Shown: positions 1 through 39,585, counted from the first letter of the stretch. The stretch is DNA of 64,000 bases from Minisyncoccota bacterium (GCA_043780835.1 JAYWCB010000005.1:125945-189944); one strand, 5' to 3'. The notes: a model not told the origin generated them from the sequence alone. Translations and numbers: made by a program.

Positions 1-622
1 AATATCCGTCGAAGCTGTCTGTTCGTATGCGGAAGGAATTGATGCCCATATCTTTTAAAAGAGACGAGGTGGTCTTTACCATTTCCGTCGGGCCGGCAAC
101 ATAATAGAGATCAGCATTTTTCCACATTGTCTCCTGATACAGCTTCACTCGATCCTTTCGCTTGAGCTCATCGGTTCGTATGTAGTGGAGATCAAGACGT
201 AATTCATTCTTCCACTCATTGAGTTCGTCTTGAAACAGAAATATATCGCTCTTATTAAAATACAGAAGCTGCACCTGGTTACCGCTTCGTTCGTCATACA
301 TCTCCTTAAGCATGCTTCGAAACGGTGCAATGCCGATACCGCCCGCGATGAATACGCTCGTGCGGTTATCTTTGACATAGAAGTCATAGGAATTGCCGTA
401 CTGACTGACATTGAGTATGTCGTCATTTTTCCGCGATTGAAGGTATTGTTTGAACGGACTCCTGCCAAACCTGAAGCTGATCATGATGCTGTCCTCTGTT
501 GGAGAGGATGCAATGGAGTATGTCTTTCCACCGCGAGGCACGCTCTCTGCTGTCATGAAAAAATCCAGCCAGTCTCCGGCCTTGTAAGAGAAGCCGTTGG
601 GACGCTTGAAATATATATTCAT
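1..622 (-). CDS. FNR-like FAD/NAD(P)-binding oxidoreductase, N-terminal ~207 aa; gene continues beyond window start
   Basis: Manual reverse-complement translation from ATG at ~620-622: MNIYFKRPNGFSYKAGDWLDFFM..GKTYSIASSP (R-x-Y-S FAD motif)..VFIAGGIGIAPF (GGxGxxP NAD(P) motif). Not in ORF track because no stop codon inside window; table ORFs 145..468(-) and 230..658(+) are off-frame/antisense artefacts of it. Confidence 0.6.
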   Translation of the reverse strand, partial: MNIYFKRPNGFSYKAGDWLDFFMTAESVPRGGKTYSIASSPTEDSIMISFRFGRSPFKQYLQSRKNDDILNVSQYGNSYDFYVKDNRTSVFIAGGIGIAPFRSMLKEMYDERSGNQVQLLYFNKSDIFLFQDELNEWKNELRLDLHYIRTDELKRKDRVKLYQETMWKNADLYYVAGPTEMVKTTSSLLKDMGINSFRIRTDSFDGY

Positions 623-870
623 AGAGTCAGAGATGCGCTCGGTGCGGATAACTTTTAACGTACATGGATTTCGTATTACTGACATGTTTGAAAAAGAATT
701 CTACACATAAACGACCTTGTTGCTGCAGGATGTATCTAATTACAGCCTCCGTCAATTTGAACCTGCTTATTGACCGCCAGTTGAACTTTATAGAATTCTG
801 TTGTAACATATTTTTTGGATTGAAATGCCCGTGCTACCAGGTTCGTATCCAGAAAACAGGGAGAATTCCT

Positions 871-2311: not shown

Positions 2312-2536
2312 ATGCAAAAAACGATGCTTCAAAGATTGGCAAGCAAGTCAGCGGATGAGTTTGATATGGCATTCATTGAGATGATGACAAAGCATCACAA
2401 TGAGGCTATAGAGATGGCTGGGCTGGCTAAAAAGAAAGGTGCACACAAGGAGATATTAAAACTTGCGGAAAATATAATCTATGCTCAAACAAAGGAAATT
2501 AAACAAATGAAATTATGGAAATCTGAATGGAAGTAA
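2312..2536 (+). CDS. DUF305-like small protein (single ferritin-like half repeat), paralog of 17754..17981
   Basis: FDMAFIEMMTKHHNEAIEMA..AENIIYAQTKEIKQMKLWKSEWK; second copy has the same C-terminal WKSEWK. Confidence 0.55.
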   Translation: MQKTMLQRLASKSADEFDMAFIEMMTKHHNEAIEMAGLAKKKGAHKEILKLAENIIYAQTKEIKQMKLWKSEWK

Positions 2537-2571: not shown

Positions 2572-3015
2572 TCATTTAAACAACCCCATGGCAATGGCAG
2601 CGATTGCCAAGTATCGGCCAAGCTTAGCTAAAAACACCAGAGCTATAAAAATAGCTAACGGCTCCCTGAGGAATCCGGCAACGAGCGTGATGGGGTCTCC
2701 GATGATTGGAGCCCAACTCAACAGCAGTGACCATTTACCGTATCGCCTATACCACGCCTCAGCTTTTTCGATTGTCGTCCGTTTTTTTATGGGAAACCAC
2801 GTGTACTGCTCAAGATACGCGATATTCCTGCCAATGAACCAATTGATTAATGATCCGAGTGTGTTTCCCGCAGTTGCAACCAGAACGAGAATCCACCATG
2901 AATACTTTCCTGATAGAAGTAGTCCGAAAAGGACCGCCTCTGACTGAAATGGGAATACTGTAGCCGCTAGTAATGCTACCCAGAAGAGGCTTACATAGAC
3001 CAAAAGAGAGCTCAT
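2572..3015 (-). CDS. DedA/YqaA-family (VTT domain) membrane protein
   Basis: Multi-TM 147 aa; typical DedA core ...YGKWSLLLSWAPIIGDPITLVAGFLR... Confidence 0.6.
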   Translation of the reverse strand: MSSLLVYVSLFWVALLAATVFPFQSEAVLFGLLLSGKYSWWILVLVATAGNTLGSLINWFIGRNIAYLEQYTWFPIKKRTTIEKAEAWYRRYGKWSLLLSWAPIIGDPITLVAGFLREPLAIFIALVFLAKLGRYLAIAAIAMGLFK

Positions 3016-3083
3016 AGATGTATCTTAGCTTTGGATTATAAGAACCAATGCCACGAGGGTGGCATTATTTCCTAATCATTCGA

Positions 3084-3980
3084 CTACTCCAGCTGATTAT
3101 TAATATCAACTGCCGCAATAGCGGCCTGGCCCATAGCTACACTTATCTGATTAAGTGCGTTCGTAACGTCTCCAACTGCATAGATGCGCGGGATAGAGGT
3201 GCGGCAATGGTCGTCAACGACAAGCGCACCCTTTGAATCAACGTCGGGTTTGAACTGCTCGACAAGGTCGGCGCGCACCTTTGCACCCAGAGCTGAATAA
3301 ATGGTGTCGAACTCGAGCTCTTGGCCCCGTGCTTCAAACGCACATATTTTGTCTCCGTTCATAACAACTTTCGTCACAGGGTCTTCTACAAAATGTATTC
3401 CTTCAGCAGTTAACACCTCGCGCTCCTCATTTAGAATATGCATCGGTTTGCCGAGTGACAATATGGTTAGGTCTTTTGCGTAGCGTTTTAACAGCAGGCT
3501 CTCCCGCAAATTCGCTTCGCCATAAAATATGACGCCAACTTTTTTATCGATTACCTCGAACCCGTCACAAATGACGCAATGACGGATCAGGCCGCGCGCA
3601 ATCGCTGCCTCGACATTAGGCAAATCCGGTTCGATATCGACGACACCAGTAGCCAGGATTACAGTTCGCGATTCGAATGTTCCTGCCCCAGTGGTTGCCA
3701 AGAATGTGCCATCGACACTCCGTATTAAATCTCTTACAGCATCCGTAATGATCTCAGCGCCGTATTTTTGCGCCTGCCGGCGCATCCGTTTGACGAGGTC
3801 GGGACCAGAAATGCCGTCGGGGAAACCTGCGTGGTTATGTGATGTGGGGATGAGCGATGCGCGACTCTTGCCGTTGTCGATAACGAGGAAGCTCCGACGG
3901 AAGCGCGCGAGATATATGGCCGCGGTCAATCCTCCTGGACCTCCGCCAATAATGAGAGAATCCAGAATTTTCCTTTGCAT
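3084..3980 (-). CDS. thioredoxin-reductase-like NAD(P)/FAD-dependent disulfide oxidoreductase
   Basis: [17 protein letters not shown] motif, redox CxxC (HCVICDG), GxGxxA NAD motif, C-terminal AVGDV. Confidence 0.7.
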
Positions 3981-4091
3981 CCATCAATGATAATTGGCGT
4001 GGGTAAGTTTAATATGAAGCATTTCAACATGGGCAGACAGCGAAATGGAATTCATGCGCCTGAAAAGTTCCCAAAGCTGATCAGAATAAAA

Positions 4092-5252
4092 TCATCCAAA
4101 TGTAAACGTATACGCTTGCAATCCGGGATTGTTTACGATTATCTCGATTGTATGTTCACCATAATCTATGCCTTCGACTAATTTGTAGAGCCGGTTTTCT
4201 TGAATCGTCATCGTGCCGTCCGCAGATACATCCGATCCTCTCCCAACCGTTATCGGTTTACCATCCAACATAACTGTGACGTTCACAGGTTTAGCGGCCG
4301 TACCAACGAGGTACACATTCTTCGATTTGTATTTATAGACAATTTTTGCACCTATGGACGTGTTTTCCGCATATTCATTTTGTAAGTTCCACGTGCCATC
4401 GAGGTACAACTCATTTGAGTGAATAGTGGTGTGCACCGTAAGCTTTTGCGTGCCCACAGTGCCCACAGTGCCCACAGTGCCTCGTGTGCCGTTTCCAAGG
4501 TACTCATTTCGAGAAGCGCCAAAATATGTTTCTGGACTTTGGACTCCGTTATTGCTAACCGTGATCACACCTGCGGGGTTCACTGTGCCGGTGGGCACCG
4601 TATCTGGAAGTCCGAGCACTTGGTCGCGCTCTTTCAATGCTGTCTGAATTTTTTGCTCGGTCTTATCATAATTACCCTCGCCAAAATGGGTATCAGCGAT
4701 ATAGCCGTCAATATCGATCAGGTATTCCGCTGGCCAATACTGGTTTTGGTACGCCTGCCATGTCGCCATTTCATTATCCTGCATAACTGGATACTTGATC
4801 CCATATTGGCCGTTGACGGCTTTGAGTACATTGTTGTAATCCTTCTCGAATTCAAATTCCGGCGAATGGACACCGACTATGACAAGACCCTGATCTTTGT
4901 ATTTCTCGTACCACGCGTTCACATACGGCGCGGAGCGTAAACAATTGATGCACGTATACGTCCAGAAGTCGATAAGTACTACTTTCTTGCCGATTAGATC
5001 TTTCAGTTTGAATGGCTCCGAATTTATGAATTTTCCACCAGGAATAAGTTCGACTGCCGGAGATAAAGTCGAAGCTTTTTGTTTGAGTATCACGGCTCTC
5101 TCTTGAGTTGTCGGTGTTGACGAAGATGTGGCAGTACGAGCGACAGGTGTACCAGCGACCGCAGGTGGCTTCGTTGACTCAATATACCAAATTGCGCCGG
5201 TGATGAATATGACTGCAATCATCAATAAAGTGTTTTTGTTCGACAAATTCAT
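4092..5252 (-). CDS. membrane-anchored TlpA/ResA-like thioredoxin-fold protein with DipZ-C-terminal-like beta domain
   Basis: N-terminal TM, Thr/Ser-rich linker, thioredoxin motif VVLIDFWTYTCINCLRSAPYV..VIVGVHSPEFEFEKD, ~170-aa C-terminal beta-rich domain; start overlaps upstream stop (ATGA). Confidence 0.7.
   Translation of the reverse strand: MNLSNKNTLLMIAVIFITGAIWYIESTKPPAVAGTPVARTATSSSTPTTQERAVILKQKASTLSPAVELIPGGKFINSEPFKLKDLIGKKVVLIDFWTYTCINCLRSAPYVNAWYEKYKDQGLVIVGVHSPEFEFEKDYNNVLKAVNGQYGIKYPVMQDNEMATWQAYQNQYWPAEYLIDIDGYIADTHFGEGNYDKTEQKIQTALKERDQVLGLPDTVPTGTVNPAGVITVSNNGVQSPETYFGASRNEYLGNGTRGTVGTVGTVGTQKLTVHTTIHSNELYLDGTWNLQNEYAENTSIGAKIVYKYKSKNVYLVGTAAKPVNVTVMLDGKPITVGRGSDVSADGTMTIQENRLYKLVEGIDYGEHTIEIIVNNPGLQAYTFTFG
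4450..4487. repeat. 9-bp tandem repeat (gcccacagt x3 plus a degenerate unit) encoding GTVGTVGTVGT inside the TlpA-like CDS
   Basis: Directly visible tandem periodicity in sequence and protein. Confidence 0.6.
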
Positions 5253-6049
5253 ACGTCTTGTTTTTTGATACTCGACTCCGCCAAGTATGAAAGGAATCCT
5301 GGAATGATTGGCAATACACAGGGGCTCAGGAATGATGCAAGGCCAGCGAAGAGAGCGACTGCAAGATTAACAATGCTCAGCGATGAAATACTTCCACCTG
5401 CGCTCGTGCCTAAATGGAGAGCGGTGAGAATGCTCGTCAGAAATTGTACATTTGCTACTTTACTCAACTCGCCGGTGAAGATAAAAATGCCTATGATAAT
5501 GAGTACTACGCCAAAAAAGTACTCGACATACGTGAGCCATGCTCCAGCGCGATTGATGAACTCCTGTGCCTGATTCGTAAATGCGCCGACGATCAAAAAC
5601 GGAATGCCGAGACCAAGAGTATATGCGAAGAGAAGCAGGAATGCGCTGCTGGGGTTTACTGCCGCGAGAGCTAAAATTGCTCCGAGTGCCGCGCTTACGC
5701 AGGGTGTCCATCCGACAGCAAATGCCGCGCCGAAAACAAACGCAGTAATGTACCGCGACTTAAACTTTCTTCGTATAAGAATTTTGTGATCGCGCTGAAG
5801 AAAGCGCGGCGTGAATAGTCCGAGAACGAAGAGTCCGAACAGGATGATGATAATGCCGCCGATCCTACCCAGCCACATCTGTACGTCGTGAGAGGAATGT
5901 ACCAGAACTGTCCGTAGCATCACTCCTACAAGCGAAAACACGACGGAAAATCCGAGCACAAAAAATACACTGGTGAAGAAAACGCCCCAGTCTCTTTTTT
6001 CATGTGCGAGGGCGAATTCGGGCTCCATATGTATGAAGTGTACTACCAA
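5249..6049 (-). CDS. CcdA/DsbD-core-like thiol-disulfide transporter with apparently circularly permuted helix order (TM2-TM6 then TM1)
   Basis: GWTPC motif (FAVGWTPCVSAALG) precedes SFLSPCVLPIIPGFLSY motif, which lies at the extreme C-terminus; N-terminus aligns with CcdA TM2; table start is TTG at 6049 with in-frame stop just upstream; ATG (MEPEF..) at ~6028 more likely. Confidence 0.6.
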   Translation of the reverse strand: MVVHFIHMEPEFALAHEKRDWGVFFTSVFFVLGFSVVFSLVGVMLRTVLVHSSHDVQMWLGRIGGIIIILFGLFVLGLFTPRFLQRDHKILIRRKFKSRYITAFVFGAAFAVGWTPCVSAALGAILALAAVNPSSAFLLLFAYTLGLGIPFLIVGAFTNQAQEFINRAGAWLTYVEYFFGVVLIIIGIFIFTGELSKVANVQFLTSILTALHLGTSAGGSISSLSIVNLAVALFAGLASFLSPCVLPIIPGFLSYLAESSIKKQDV

Positions 6050-6063
6050 ATTTTAGATAGGCT

Positions 6064-6495
6064 ATGTATACTACGATGCATATGAGGCTCGGAACGCATG
6101 CTCAGATCCTCGTGCTTTTCGTGCTCGCGGCACTCATCGTAATGAGTCTTTGCGGAACAGTTCTCAATGTGAGAATGGAAAAAGATGCACAAACATCAAC
6201 ATCTGGATGCATGTTCAGCGCCATTGCCATTTGCACGCTGTCCCCCCTGGCGCATTTTGCTGTGGGGCAGAGTATGTTCACCGGGACAGCTTTCGATGCA
6301 GTTCGTGCACTTGCTCTCCTGTTAGCTGCGGCAGTTTTTGCAGTATATATAACAAGGCGGTTACTGTTTGATGACGTTCTCAATTTTCTAGAGACACGTC
6401 AAAGATTGCGTTTTGAGCACTCGCTCGCGATTGTCCATATAAGTTCGTTCCAGGAAGCTTTTTCACGCGGCATTCTAAATCCGAAGGTTTATTAA
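6064..6495 (+). CDS. hypothetical Cys/His-containing membrane protein
   Basis: ORF divergent from ccdA-like gene; hydrophobic segments; no recognisable domain. Confidence 0.3.
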   Translation: MYTTMHMRLGTHAQILVLFVLAALIVMSLCGTVLNVRMEKDAQTSTSGCMFSAIAICTLSPLAHFAVGQSMFTGTAFDAVRALALLLAAAVFAVYITRRLLFDDVLNFLETRQRLRFEHSLAIVHISSFQEAFSRGILNPKVY

Positions 6496-6563
6496 TTTCT
6501 CTTAACGAAAGACCCTCAATGAAGTTGAGCGGTTTTCTATTTATAAGGTCAAGAGAAATTAAC

Positions 6564-7082
6564 ATGAAAACAAAATACATTATTGGCTTCATTGTTGGAG
6601 CGGCGGTACTGCCGTTGCTCGCAATTGTATTAATCCCCACTCCGAAGCCGCAGGCGGCGAGACCTCTGATGGGCGAGAAAATGACTGATCAGACTGCCAC
6701 ACACATCGAACGTGGGGCGGCACATGCGGCATACAACTCGGATCCGCCGACGTCAGGCGTACATTGGGGAGATGGCGTCGCGGGAGCTGGCATTAAGACT
6801 GAACAGGTCCCTGATGAACTTGTGCTACACAGTATGGAGCACGGTGCGGCAGTTATTTGGTACAAGGCAGACCTTGCAAAAGACGAGATTGCGAAAATTC
6901 AGGGCGCGTTCGATGCAGCAAAGATCGCGAAGAAAATCATGGTGCCCCGTACAAATCTCGACGTACCCGTCGCGCTCGTCTCGTGGGGCTACCTGCTGAA
7001 GCAGAAAACGTTAGATCCTGCACAAATCACTGCATTCTTATTGTCGAACAATGGACGCGGTACGGAAAACTCACCAATCTAG
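6564..7082 (+). CDS. DUF3105-like membrane-anchored protein
   Basis: N-terminal TM then HIERGAAHAAYNSDPPTSGVHW...LHSMEHGAAVIWY; internal Met of table ORF 6519..7082 taken as start. Confidence 0.45.
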   Translation: MKTKYIIGFIVGAAVLPLLAIVLIPTPKPQAARPLMGEKMTDQTATHIERGAAHAAYNSDPPTSGVHWGDGVAGAGIKTEQVPDELVLHSMEHGAAVIWYKADLAKDEIAKIQGAFDAAKIAKKIMVPRTNLDVPVALVSWGYLLKQKTLDPAQITAFLLSNNGRGTENSPI

Positions 7083-7128
7083 ATGTGCGATGCGTGATTA
7101 TTAAATTAGAAGTTAAGATGAAATAACT

Positions 7129-7848
7129 ATGGAGACTGAATCGCAACAAAATAAATTACTCATTCCTGGCGCGATAGTCATTGCTGGATTTTTAATCGCT
7201 GGAGGACTTCTCATTGGACTTCGTGGAAACAGTTCGGCGCAAGTCGGTGCGACGCCTCCAACCGGCCAACAACCAACACAGGCGGCGGATGTTAGCAAGG
7301 TCAAGATCGCTGGTGAACCATATATTGGAAAGGAGGACGCTCCAGTCACGATGGCGTACTGGTTCGATTACCAGTGTCCGTTCTGTCAGCGCAACGAGAT
7401 TGATGTCATGCCGCAGCTCGTTAAAGAATACGTGGACACCGGCAAGGTTAAGATTGTATTCAAAGATTTCGAATTTTTAAGCGAGGATTCGCAACGACTT
7501 GGCAAAGTAGCGCGTGCTGTCTGGGATACTGCTCCGGATAAATTCTATCAATGGCACAAGGCTGTCTTTGAGAATCAGGGTAAGGAAAATACAGGCTGGG
7601 CAACAGACGCGAAGATCCTCTCAATTACGACGAGCGTACTTGGCGCAGCAGATGCGCAAAAAGTAATGGCACTGGCGATTAAGAATTCAGATGCGTATCA
7701 AAAAGAGATGGACGATGACAAAGCCGAAGGAGGGGCAATGGGCGTAAGCGGTACGCCAGGCACGATCATTGGTAAACAGTTTATCAATGGAGCTCAGCCA
7801 TACGCAGCATTTAAGCAAGTCATTGATCTTACCCTTGCGGGAAAGTGA
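7129..7848 (+). CDS. DsbA/BdbD-like thiol:disulfide oxidoreductase, membrane anchored
   Basis: N-terminal TM; thioredoxin-fold active site YWFDYQCPFCQRNE (CPFC); C-terminal GVSGTPGTIIG. Confidence 0.7.
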   Translation: METESQQNKLLIPGAIVIAGFLIAGGLLIGLRGNSSAQVGATPPTGQQPTQAADVSKVKIAGEPYIGKEDAPVTMAYWFDYQCPFCQRNEIDVMPQLVKEYVDTGKVKIVFKDFEFLSEDSQRLGKVARAVWDTAPDKFYQWHKAVFENQGKENTGWATDAKILSITTSVLGAADAQKVMALAIKNSDAYQKEMDDDKAEGGAMGVSGTPGTIIGKQFINGAQPYAAFKQVIDLTLAGK

Positions 7849-8384
7849 TTATGATTGCGAGCGCGTTCACGACAGTATTCAAAAAGTGGCAGTATGTGTT
7901 ACTTGCCGCTGCTGTGGCGCTGTTTATGACTGTGTTTGCAACATGGCTGCCGAATCTGCGACTCCTATTGTCGATTCTTGGAAATCCCGCAGTAGCTCTC
8001 GCCGACAAATTAACTTTGCCGGTTAATCTTGCCACGTCGATCACGACAAACTTCACGGTCCGTGCCGCTCTCTACATCATTGCGAGCGCCGTGCTCGCTG
8101 GTATCAATGTCTCGCTCATTACGTACTACATTAATAGACAGAGACGTGTATCAGGAGCTGGCGCGGCAGCGGGTGGGCTCGGACTCATAAGTGGAGTCCT
8201 TGGAGTCGGATGCGCTGCATGTGGCTCGCTGGTAGTCATGTCCGTATTCGGCACAGCGGCGGGTGCAAGCATCATCACCTTTTTACCGCTCAAAGGTGAA
8301 GAATTCGGAATCGCTGGAGTAACGCTGCTTGGTATTTCGGCGTACATTTCGGCGAAACAAATAACGAAGCCCCTTGTGTGCTAG
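7845..8384 (+). CDS. polytopic membrane protein with intramembrane CAAC motif, translationally coupled to dsbA-like gene
   Basis: ATGA overlap with upstream stop; ~5 TM; GVLGVGCAACGSLVVM; no DsbB/VKOR signatures. Confidence 0.5.
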   Translation: MIMIASAFTTVFKKWQYVLLAAAVALFMTVFATWLPNLRLLLSILGNPAVALADKLTLPVNLATSITTNFTVRAALYIIASAVLAGINVSLITYYINRQRRVSGAGAAAGGLGLISGVLGVGCAACGSLVVMSVFGTAAGASIITFLPLKGEEFGIAGVTLLGISAYISAKQITKPLVC

Positions 8385-8524
8385 TCACAACATTGTCCTA
8401 CCTTTCCATACCCTAAGGGATGACACTAGATGCCCTAGGGCGTCAAGAGCGTCCTGAGTAGCCAAGGTGTTGGTAACTAAAATGTGCCGAAAAGCACTGA
8501 AAGCGGGTTGGATAAATGAGTAGC

Positions 8525-23454: not shown

Positions 23455-23645
23455 TAGTATACGCTCAACGTTTGGTTTCCATGGCTCTTATTCTAGTATA
23501 TTTGCCTGTTGGTAAGTCCCTTCGCAAAACCCTGAAATCTGCTAGGGTGCAAATTGATAGCCTAAAGTGCTATCATGTTCTTGCAGACAATTAAATAAAA
23601 GCCGACCTAACCCCTTTGGAATTTCCAGAGGATATGGTTGCAAAC

Positions 23646-23797
23646 CCCGCTAGAGATCAAAGGACTCCTCGTCAGAGTCACTCTAGCGGGTTATATCGGG
23701 AAACCGGTATAGGTGGGAGCCGAAAGGTTCTCATCGCGATGGCGAGGGGCCTTTTGATTACCTGAAGGTTCCCACCACTAAAATCCCGCTAGATTTT
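23646..23797 (+). promoter_or_regulatory. structured 5' leader with mutually exclusive helices (possible cis-regulatory RNA) upstream of 23798 gene
   Basis: CCCGCTAGAG (23646-55) and CCCGCTAGA (23785-93, followed by TTTT and the ATG) can both pair with CTCTAGCGGG (23681-90); internal GAAA-tetraloop hairpin and GGTGGGA..GGTTCCCACC helix. Confidence 0.3.
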
Positions 23798-38098: not shown

Positions 38099-38644
38099 AT
38101 GATGTTCGAAAATGCAGGTCGCGAATATAAAAAGCGACTCGAAAGTAATCGGGAACGTTTTGAGAAAGCAGGCGAATCAATTAAAACAATACAAGAAATG
38201 GAGAACCTTTTTCATGAGCATGAGGCTCTTTTGCAGAGAGCTTCAACGGGAGAAATTGATACGGAAACCTATATGCTAGAAAAAGAGCGGCTGGATACGG
38301 CGCTCGGCGCCGTCGAAGTCGACTCAATCATGGAGCTGCGTACGCTTTTAATCGAGGCTGGTTATGCGGATGAAGAAGCTGACTATTGGGCTGCACACGA
38401 AAATGCTCACGCGAATAAGGCCCAAGAGCTCGGTCTGCCAGTGCAGTACCAGGTCTTTCGAGCGACACATCGGGACGCAGATGGCACCGTTACACGAAAA
38501 ATACTGCCCGCTGTCTCGGTCGGATATAACGCTGAACAGACGCATGCGGAACGTGCAAAAGACAATCGCGCTGTAACATCCGCGCCAGACGAATTGAGTG
38601 AGGGTGATAAGCGCGTGCTCGGGTCATTCGATAAAGGCAACTAG
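38099..38644 (+). CDS. hypothetical protein (181 aa)
   Basis: ORF; acidic, helical. Confidence 0.4.
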   Translation: MMFENAGREYKKRLESNRERFEKAGESIKTIQEMENLFHEHEALLQRASTGEIDTETYMLEKERLDTALGAVEVDSIMELRTLLIEAGYADEEADYWAAHENAHANKAQELGLPVQYQVFRATHRDADGTVTRKILPAVSVGYNAEQTHAERAKDNRAVTSAPDELSEGDKRVLGSFDKGN

Positions 38645-39585
38645 CTTCCTTTGTGTACGAACAGGTAGATGTCCTCAAGCGCTTTGACGGCGTCGCCAGC
38701 GGCGATGTTGTTCTGGTGATAGACGCCGTCGGTAATATCGCCTGCAGCCCATACGCGCGGGTGTGAGGTGCGTTGTGTGCGTGGATTGACTTTGATTTGT
38801 CTTATTTCATTCATATCGACATTTTCGCCGACCCATCCGGAATTCGGAATGAGTCCGATTTCCACGAAGATTCCCGAGACCGGTAGCAGTGTTTCAGCAC
38901 CCGTTGCGTCTTTGTATTTGATTCCGGAGACGAAACCTGTGCCCACCACTTCGCTTGGCGACACATTGGTAATGACTTTAAAATTCGGCTTTGCTTTAGC
39001 GGCAGCGACAGTAATCTCATCGGCGCGAAAGGAATCAGTGCGGTTCAGGAGTGTTACGGTTTTGCAGTACGCGAGTAGCTGGAGCGCGGTTTCAAATGCC
39101 GCATTACCGCCTCCTATGACCGCCACATCCATACCGCCAAAGAGCGGCCCGTCACAGGACGCGCAGTAGGTGAGGCCTTTATTGTCAAACTCTACCGCAC
39201 CGGTCACATCAAGCTTTCTGCGCTGTGCTCCCGATGCCACAAGAAGGGATTTTGCAGAGTATACCGTGCCATCGTCGAGCGTAACTTCTACATGATCATC
39301 AAAGGTCTTGAGTGATGTTGCGAGCCCGGGTGAGACCACTTCCAGAAAATCGCCCTTGTACGCCTCGACGTGCTTCTTTAGTGCCTCTGCGAGTTCAGTG
39401 CCATGAATGGCCGGTGTGCCGACCCAGTTCTGGATTTCTGTTGAAACAACGCTCTGTCCTCCCCATTCGGAAGTAATTTGAATAGTTTTCAGCTGCTTTC
39501 GCGCTGCATATATTGCAGCCGAAGTTCCCGCAGGTCCGCCTCCGATGATGATGAGATCGTGCATACCCGTCACACGAAACGGCAT
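38641..39585 (-). CDS. trxB: thioredoxin-disulfide reductase
   Basis: IIIGGGPAGTSAAIY, redox CASCDG, GGGNAA, AAGDIT motifs. Confidence 0.8.
   Translation of the reverse strand: MPFRVTGMHDLIIIGGGPAGTSAAIYAARKQLKTIQITSEWGGQSVVSTEIQNWVGTPAIHGTELAEALKKHVEAYKGDFLEVVSPGLATSLKTFDDHVEVTLDDGTVYSAKSLLVASGAQRRKLDVTGAVEFDNKGLTYCASCDGPLFGGMDVAVIGGGNAAFETALQLLAYCKTVTLLNRTDSFRADEITVAAAKAKPNFKVITNVSPSEVVGTGFVSGIKYKDATGAETLLPVSGIFVEIGLIPNSGWVGENVDMNEIRQIKVNPRTQRTSHPRVWAAGDITDGVYHQNNIAAGDAVKALEDIYLFVHKGS

Follow-up and report, generated by a model that had tools for sequence, protein, structure and literature searches.

Within a 64,000-nt stretch of DNA from a Minisyncoccota bacterium (GCA_043780835.1 JAYWCB010000005.1:125945-189944; hereafter the window, whose numbering is used throughout), positions 2572-6049 carry four minus-strand genes that a preliminary description took to be a self-contained reductive operon equipped with its own thioredoxin reductase (TrxR)-like enzyme. 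Our analysis favours, at a probability of about three in four, a smaller conserved unit, namely a two-gene envelope thiol-reducing module made up of a circularly permuted CcdA and a membrane-anchored TlpA/DipZ-C-like partner, with the TrxR-like flavoprotein and the DedA protein as accessory neighbours. The permutation itself is observed directly: the CcdA encoded here begins with the core of transmembrane helices 2 to 6 (TM2-TM6), continues through a linker of about 30 residues and ends with a cysteine-bearing, TM1-like helix.

The gene content had been described correctly, with four minus-strand open reading frames (ORFs), non-overlapping apart from 4 bp at the first junction, that encode in order a CcdA-like protein, a TlpA/DipZ-C-like protein, a TrxR-like flavoprotein with a CVIC motif and a DedA protein, identities that profile searches back. 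Translational coupling, which had been proposed for all of these genes, holds for the first pair, in which an ATGA (read directly as gtATGAat) contains both the stop codon of ccdA and the start codon of tlpA; the other two junctions are gaps, of 111 bp between tlpA and the TrxR-like gene and of 68 bp between the latter and dedA.

The CcdA-like protein is circularly permuted

The ccdA gene (5249..6028, minus strand) encodes 259 residues from an ATG at 6028, with an in-frame TTG upstream at 6049. Its product belongs to the Pfam family DsbD_TM (PF02683; 79 bits against a cut-off of 27.1), which it matches in two out-of-order stretches: the main stretch covers profile positions 45-215 and the TM1 part is matched last, rather than in the collinear order TM1-TM6. 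When the last 46 residues were moved to the front in silico, a single collinear stretch was recovered, spanning profile positions 3-215. Comparison with the CcdA of T. thermophilus (5vkv, E 1.1e-34) gave the same arrangement, with residues 24-202 of the 266-aa ORF aligned to chain residues 40-209 (TM2-TM6) and residues 228-257 aligned to chain residues 4-33, which comprise TM1 and its SPC motif. The C-terminal helix that aligns to TM1 of 5vkv, residues 221-250 of the protein, reads NLAVALFAGLASFLSPCVLPIIPGFLSYLA and is encoded at 5279..5368 on the minus strand. There is no space for a hidden TM1 upstream, since the start of the divergent gene (6064) is only 36 bases away from the ATG.

The protein contains exactly two cysteines, one in each of the xPC motifs that mark TM1 and TM4 of the family: Cys237 (SPC; codon 5318-5320) in the C-terminal helix, and Cys110 (WTPC; codon 5699..5701, minus strand) in the TM4-equivalent helix. 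If each helix keeps its canonical orientation, the order TM2-3-4-5-6-linker-1 results in an N-in/C-in topology, as opposed to the canonical N-out/C-out. Lysine and arginine residues, counted by direct reading with helix limits taken from a low-confidence structure model, number 2 at the N-terminus, 8 in the TM3-TM4 loop, 1 in the TM6-TM1 linker and 2 in the C-terminal tail; helix order and positive-inside charges together predict that both termini are cytoplasmic and that the linker lies outside the cell.

Conservation, spread and origin of the permuted form

The permuted layout is common to all 23 close homologues from the candidate phyla radiation (CPR) in a first alignment (A1, 67-91% identity), in which both cysteine motifs are invariant, and also to 14 distant, full-length permuted representatives in a second (A2, 32-45% identity), in which W-x-P-C and S-P-C are likewise invariant. 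At the level of single residues, S235, P236, C237, W107, P109 and C110 do not vary in either alignment, and T108 is invariant in A1 alone. To judge from these sequences, the strength of conservation of the permutation implies purifying selection. Homologues carry the labels Kaiserbacteria, Sungbacteria, Nomurabacteria, Paceibacterota and 'Patescibacteria group', which places the window in a CPR genome of the Parcubacteria type.

In a scan of one genome per species, a relative was encoded in at least 431 species genomes, of which the best 80 supplied the related loci compared below (counts from clustering of neighbouring ORFs are out of 81). At these best 80 loci the match runs over residues ~9-258, i.e. 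the full permuted length, at 55-82% identity; about 26 of them are labelled Woese-, Nano- or Micrarchaeota, and the others belong to many CPR lineages. Between CPR and DPANN genomes (DPANN loci L026, L043-L049 and L052-L082, compared with 5249-6028), the permuted CcdA is 55-69% identical and its TlpA/DipZ-C partner 34-47%. An identity of 55-69% for CcdA is high across two domains and suggests that the ccdA-tlpA pair has been transferred laterally between the two groups.

Among 1.84 billion cluster representatives (50% identity), HMMER returned 6,625 CcdA-type matches, and sorting the top 150 by the order of core and TM1 gave 110 canonical proteins, 19 permuted ones and 21 fragments. Some of the divergent permuted representatives are labelled Dehalococcoidia, Bellilinea (Chloroflexota) or 'archaeon', and all are annotated just as CcdA. 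When 112 sequences of the TM2-TM6 core were placed in a neighbour-joining tree, permuted forms lay scattered among canonical ones; this tree is star-like with very short internal branches, for which reason we do not count the scatter as evidence for multiple origins, and it does not tell a single from a multiple origin of the permutation. No description of a permuted CcdA or DsbD was found in the searchable literature, which included work on the LysE superfamily and largely excluded subscription journals, and the permuted form appears to have gone unremarked so far.

The partner protein and the split DipZ

Overlapping the end of ccdA, the tlpA gene (4092..5252, minus strand; CINC codons at 4941-4952) encodes a 386-aa protein, predicted to be membrane-anchored, in which a TlpA/ResA-like thioredoxin fold is followed by a DipZ C-terminal domain. 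Pfam assigns it Thioredoxin_10 (PF17991, 116 bits) together with Thioredoxin_8, Redoxin and AhpC-TSA. Residues 77-386 match the soluble part of M. tuberculosis DipZ (2hyx/5cyy) over both domains (E 8.6e-53), with WTYTCINC aligned to WAYSCINC of the mycobacterial protein, and the thioredoxin-type CxxC and the Thioredoxin_10 domain are therefore both in place. The named NCBIfam groups score well below their cut-offs (ResA, NF002854, 70 bits against 170; TlpA, NF047696, 20.7 against 230), and by these sequence criteria the protein is a member of the ResA/TlpA fold class with no named orthologue.

The preliminary description had called this gene pair a split DipZ. Here the single polypeptide of DipZ is replaced by two ORFs with a 4-bp overlap, fused forms being found elsewhere (P0246 and L002), and the canonical-order protein nearest to the CcdA core is itself of the fused DipZ type (577 aa); its clade also contains an adjacent cluster, one member of which bears the label Omnitrophota. 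Since the CcdA half and the TlpA half are both most similar to DipZ-type proteins, the latter aligning end to end with the soluble part of DipZ, the sequence comparisons support 'split DipZ' as a fair description. The pairing also recurs. For 68 loci, at least 1 kb of sequence downstream of the permuted ccdA is available, and in 64 of them tblastn places the start of a same-strand tlpA/dipZ-C within the first 400 bp; two further loci have the gene within ~1.1 kb.

What follows tlpA is less constant. Downstream of the ccdA-tlpA pair elsewhere in CPR and DPANN genomes we observed MsrA (17/81), MsrB (11/81) and an NrdH/Grx-like redoxin of about 80 residues (11/81), for example at L013 4740-5306, L012 9936-10331, L017 756-1001 and L003 3414-3656. 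Genes of cytoplasmic thiol or oxidative-stress metabolism are thus frequent behind tlpA, but not the same ones in every lineage.

The TrxR-like gene and dedA lie in a variable, recombinase-associated region

The gene order proposed for a self-contained four-gene operon is not conserved. The TrxR-like gene (3084..3980, minus strand, 298 aa) has no counterpart of its subfamily at any of the 80 related loci searched by tblastn with the window proteins, and dedA (2572..3015, minus strand, 147 aa) adjoins the module at none of them. The sole TrxR-type match, 28% identical (L003), is a canonical enzyme with GRG, CVTC and GGGDAS motifs that lies 1.4 kb away behind an NrdH-like redoxin, and the one DedA match is 6 kb off, on the opposite strand and 25% identical. 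The DedA protein of this genome is a membrane protein with a VTT domain (Pfam VTT_dom, PF09335, 50.1 bits against 33.9), which reaches 31 bits against a cut-off of 300 for UptA.

The two closest relatives (L083 and L084, whose CcdA proteins are 91% and 85% identical to this one) share the upstream divergent DsbA-like and TM143 genes in synteny, and neither carries the TrxR-like gene downstream of tlpA. In L084, tlpA is followed directly by a sequence of about 75 bp, here called S, and by the N-terminus of a serine recombinase, the latter near-identical to that of this genome, in which the S'-recombinase junction lies 4.1 kb further on from tlpA. Behind tlpA of L083, an XRE-type helix-turn-helix ORF on the opposite strand is the first that looks coding, and a 90-aa ORF is also called on the tlpA strand; three close relatives show three arrangements downstream of tlpA. 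A Logan contig of the same genome (L001) extends past the left edge of the window, and the order after dedA reads DUF305 fragment, HD-domain gene, 127-aa ORF, FNR-like flavin reductase ORF and 440-aa large serine recombinase. Because the closest relatives differ after tlpA, and because tlpA of L084 abuts the same recombinase, these sequences suggest that the TrxR-like gene, dedA and four further ORFs were inserted into a variable spot, and the evidence points to a chance adjacency of the TrxR-like gene and dedA to the module in a variable region.

Several smaller features belong to this region. Sequence S occurs at 8403..8478 and is repeated, with 78% identity and unchanged orientation, just beyond the left edge of the window (L001 4510-4584); the two copies form a direct repeat that flanks an 8.5-kb block containing the whole redox cluster, the left copy consisting of the upstream region and first codons of the recombinase. 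In L084, S is found at 2809-2883. It could be a recombination site or the remnant of an element border. The FNR-like NAD(P)H flavin reductase ORF (~1-685, minus strand, running off the left edge; L001 3795-4481) has an NAD_binding_1 domain and weak matches to BenC and Fre, and is on the strand of the TrxR-like gene. A 74-aa DUF305/CopM ORF (2312-2536, plus strand) covers profile positions 82-150 of 151 only, and looks like the truncated remnant of a copper-associated gene.

The 68-bp spacer ahead of dedA contains a hairpin with a 9-bp stem (3046..3067, minus strand), followed by GTTCTTATAA, which has a TATAAT; its fold z-score is -2.06 and it matches a terminator by consensus only, making it a putative terminator. 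A scan for sigma-70-like promoters found fewer sites than in shuffled sequences and none upstream of the genes, and was uninformative for this organism. Base composition was also considered as a sign of a foreign origin of the TrxR-like gene; the difference in GC content (0.508 against 0.485 for the window) is not informative.

The TrxR-like protein is a DDOR-like flavoprotein

The TrxR-like protein matches Pfam Pyr_redox_2, and TRX_reduct is its best NCBIfam model, the score for which (TIGR01292) is 169.4 bits against a cut-off of 343.45. It shares with TrxB and with the FFTR and DTR enzymes the two-Rossmann-domain fold family and a CxxC in the second domain. The FAD-binding GxGxxG is present as GGGPGG (residues 12-17; 3930-3947) and the CxxC as CVIC (residues 135-138; 3567-3578), the latter invariant in 27 family members. 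The NADPH site of TrxB is missing: VIFYGEAN (3510-3533) stands in place of V(I/V)GGGDSA, no HRR motif follows, and LSLGKPM is among the replacing stretches. The thioredoxin-binding FF is also absent, with DGFE after the CxxC as opposed to DGFF. About half of the TrxR-like family keeps GxGxxG in the second Rossmann fold, and the electron donor may therefore differ within the family.

The best matches in the PDB are the cyanobacterial DDORs Gll2934 (5n0j) and Slr0600 (5jri) (E 2e-34, HMMER 122 bits), followed by ordinary TrxRs and by HlmI (4ntd, E 5.8e-32), DepH (4nte/4jn9, E ~3.5e-26) and GliT (4ntc, E 6.9e-18). With motifs defined as in PMC9025218, the protein shows the DDOR pattern, in which the FAD site and CxxC are kept and the NADPH and thioredoxin-binding motifs are lost; the likeness extends to the replacement of FF by an aromatic residue and glutamate (CVICDGFE here, CLICDGYE in DDOR). 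The match is moderate, however, and residue 298, the last of the protein, corresponds to residue 311 of 351 in 5n0j, the solved DDORs being 351 and 330 residues long; the protein ends about 35 residues short and lacks the C-terminal extension, and an assignment as DDOR was rejected for this reason. An assignment as FFTR was likewise rejected, the FF motif being missing here and the thioredoxin-binding motifs being retained in FFTRs (PMC9025218).

Its relatives lie mostly outside the cyanobacteria as well. One CPR homologue is 66% identical, all others are 52-59% identical, and every organism-named relative in the latter range is alphaproteobacterial (Methylobacterium, Azospirillum, Geminicoccaceae and Stellaceae). 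The contexts of four homologous loci are unrelated, comprising DUF347, transposases, and a small TM ORF with cytochrome oxidase, and none has an adjacent CcdA; on the contig of the 66% CPR homologue (L002), a canonical-order fused DipZ lies 6.5 kb away. In the Azospirillum locus (L086), a 112-aa ORF with a predicted membrane segment (4658-4996) was observed 4 bp upstream of the TrxR-like homologue, with cytochrome oxidase subunits II and I following. Taken by its sequence, the protein would be a DDOR-like CxxC flavoprotein of a large family, ~55% identical to the alphaproteobacterial members, and its role is most likely cytoplasmic, in general thiol or oxidative-stress metabolism.

Weighing the two-gene module against other readings

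Several points weigh against a module limited to ccdA and tlpA. The TrxR-like gene is on the same strand as tlpA, 111 bp downstream, with no terminator-like site in between, and co-transcription of the two in this particular genome is possible. A cytoplasmic thioredoxin-fold donor is not visible in the window: neither a thioredoxin of the WCGPC type nor any homologue of Trx, Grx or NrdH was found in the whole 64 kb, which agrees with the earlier remark that the operon has no thioredoxin gene. The recurrence of MsrA, MsrB and redoxin genes at related loci, together with the one canonical TrxR, may indicate a loose link of the module to cytoplasmic thiol-redox genes. Finally, all function proposed here is taken from homology.

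The first two of these points are also those that speak for the reading with which the locus was originally described, a four-gene operon in which the TrxR-like flavoprotein is the dedicated reductant of CcdA, directly or via a redoxin, bypassing the housekeeping thioredoxin, and in which DedA has an envelope role. Such a redox operon with its own reductase would have mattered, if true. With the FF motif absent, thioredoxin is probably not a substrate of the flavoprotein (motif as in PMC9025218), the FNR-like NAD(P)H flavin reductase ORF of the same inserted segment could supply electrons, and one relative does have a canonical TrxR and an NrdH-like redoxin 1.4 kb downstream of tlpA. Nevertheless, we regard this operon as unlikely. 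The adjacency of the TrxR-like gene is unique to this genome among the 80 loci and is absent from its two closest relatives, the segment looks inserted between tlpA and the recombinase, homologues at 52-66% identity occur in unrelated contexts with no adjacent CcdA, and a terminator-like hairpin precedes dedA. We also know of no flavoprotein that directly reduces the membrane domain of a CcdA or DsbD. The flavoprotein further lacks the features of an NADPH-dependent TrxR, and the idea of a dedicated TrxR-fed electron route is not sustained by these comparisons.

The PDB matches raise another role for the flavoprotein, as an FAD-dependent dithiol oxidase of the GliT/HlmI/DepH type: with O2, it would introduce a disulfide into a peptide or small molecule, and would have no part in envelope reduction. 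HlmI, with a score close to the best, DepH and GliT are all among the matches, the CxxC is invariant in the family, and these dithiol oxidases do not need NAD(P)H. The scores of ordinary TrxRs are just as high, however, no biosynthetic gene cluster surrounds the gene here or at four homologous loci, and relatives may bind a nucleotide, given the GxGxxG that about half of the family members keep; we consider a dithiol oxidase improbable.

A more far-reaching reading treats the permuted CcdA as a distinct class of thiol-electron transporter, independent of classical thioredoxin, whose cytoplasmic termini would form a docking surface; in this genome the DDOR-like flavoprotein would reduce CcdA directly, possibly fed by the FNR-like reductase. 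We hold this to be very improbable; if true, electrons would reach the surface of an ultra-small symbiont without any need for thioredoxin. A last reading would dismiss the permuted CcdA as a decayed gene or as an error of annotation or assembly, the real transporter being a canonical CcdA elsewhere in the genome. It might be argued from the weak structure model of CcdA and from the canonical and DsbD_2-type CcdA proteins that CPR genomes also encode (L002 has a fused DipZ, L068 a second CcdA match), but is effectively refuted by the conservation data: all permuted homologues aligned, which stem from separate assemblies and from two domains and are 55-91% identical over the full length, repeat the layout and the invariant cysteines, and the reading frame is intact, coupled to tlpA and conserved in a way that implies purifying selection.

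A proposed route for electrons through the two-gene module

For the two-gene module, CcdA, DsbD and DipZ serve as the models from which we infer the topology, the direction of electron flow, the donor and the substrates. The Cys237/Cys110 pair of CcdA would receive its electrons from a thioredoxin-fold protein of the cytoplasm whose gene lies elsewhere, and would pass them to the extracytoplasmic CINC site of the TlpA/DipZ-C protein and on to oxidised cysteines of surface proteins. The NrdH-like redoxin found near the module in other genomes is a candidate for a cytoplasmic donor to the permuted CcdA. For its own reduction, the donor would in turn draw on the NAD(P)H-type reductase at 38641-39585 or on an enzyme equivalent to it. 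With the C-terminus of CcdA predicted to be cytoplasmic, a thioredoxin domain could no longer be fused to it directly and would need its own anchor, and the permutation would thus supply a structural reason for the split of DipZ.

The gene at 38641-39585 (minus strand) had been named as the canonical trxB of the window. Its product does have a CASC and, as GGGNAA, an intact NAD(P)H motif. The AhpF model gives it 287 bits and TRX_reduct 251, in both cases less than the curated cut-off. To judge from its sequence, it should be classed with NAD(P)H-type reductases of the TrxR/AhpF-C kind and not as a textbook TrxB.

The divergent redox cluster and copper genes

Upstream of ccdA, and outside the ccdA-tlpA module, a divergent cluster on the plus strand (6064..8384) provides the genomic context, with a TM protein (6064-6495), a DUF3105 protein (6519-7082), a DsbA-like protein with a CPFC motif (7129-7848) and a 179-aa membrane protein (7845-8384). 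Beyond it lie CsoR (11521), CopA (11798) and ClpB, the CsoR-CopA pair being 5.5 kb from the module, in keeping with the copper genes that had been reported nearby. Among related loci, CopA is found in the neighbouring ORFs (within ~7 kb) in 6/81.

The 179-aa membrane protein has no Pfam domain and is translationally coupled to the DsbA-like gene. Its family comprises 223 matches at E <= 0.001, with Patescibacteria as the only organism label among the matches listed, and Cys123 and Cys126 are invariant, in a GCAACG motif within a TM helix; there is also a C-terminal cysteine, Cys179. In a distant CPR genome (L088 2781-8534), the order DsbA-like protein, 179-aa protein, DUF3105, cupredoxin, two ORFs, CsoR and CopA is kept. 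Sequence and gene order make the 179-aa protein a candidate for a copper-linked thiol-oxidoreductase partner, possibly a DsbB/VKOR substitute. Elsewhere in the window, a full-length match to the Rfam LOOT RNA (RF03000) lies at 23604-23732 on the plus strand (73 bits against a gathering score of 46.4).

Relation to known systems and significance

The module is closest in composition to M. tuberculosis DipZ (Rv2874), with which it shares a CcdA-type membrane domain, a TlpA-like thioredoxin domain with C-I-N-C and a Thioredoxin_10 C-terminal domain, and from which it differs in being divided between two coupled genes, with an N-terminal anchor on the thioredoxin protein and with TM1 last in CcdA. 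Canonical CcdA proteins (5vkv) with partners of the ResA/TlpA or Etrx type, such as CcdA-ResA of B. subtilis and CcdA-Etrx-MsrAB of S. pneumoniae, have the xPC cysteines in TM1 and TM4 and a separate anchored thioredoxin partner next door, as observed here; the helix order TM2-3-4-5-6-1, the predicted cytoplasmic termini and the extra DipZ C-terminal domain of the partner set the present module apart. As in the pneumococcal system, MsrA and MsrB recur near the module at related loci, but these Msr proteins have no obvious signal peptide and may therefore not be its direct substrates. The CPR group is generally without c-type cytochromes, which makes cytochrome maturation an unlikely role. A further likeness, to the ScsB/ScsC-type copper-linked envelope thiol systems, is that a DsbD-family reductant stands beside DsbA-like and copper resistance genes; in the distant CPR genome, however, it is the DsbA-179-aa protein (TM179)-DUF3105 cluster and not the CcdA module that travels with CsoR-CopA.

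Judged by sequence comparison, then, the permutation of CcdA would be the new element, within a module whose CcdA/DipZ-type thiol-electron transfer is of a known kind. To our knowledge, no proteins other than CcdA and DsbD use cysteine chemistry to bring reducing power through the cytoplasmic membrane, and models of their mechanism invoke an inverted repeat of 3+3 helices with one cysteine per half. A natural, strongly conserved permutation that keeps both cysteines, moves TM1 behind TM6 and is predicted to flip both termini would show which helix connections matter. For annotation, it means that databases label the permuted proteins plain CcdA or TauE/SafE, and that domain models match them in two out-of-order pieces. 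For the organisms, CPR and DPANN cells are both ultra-small and depend on hosts, and their sharing of the ccdA-tlpA pair points to an exchange of genes and to a common need for reduced surface proteins.

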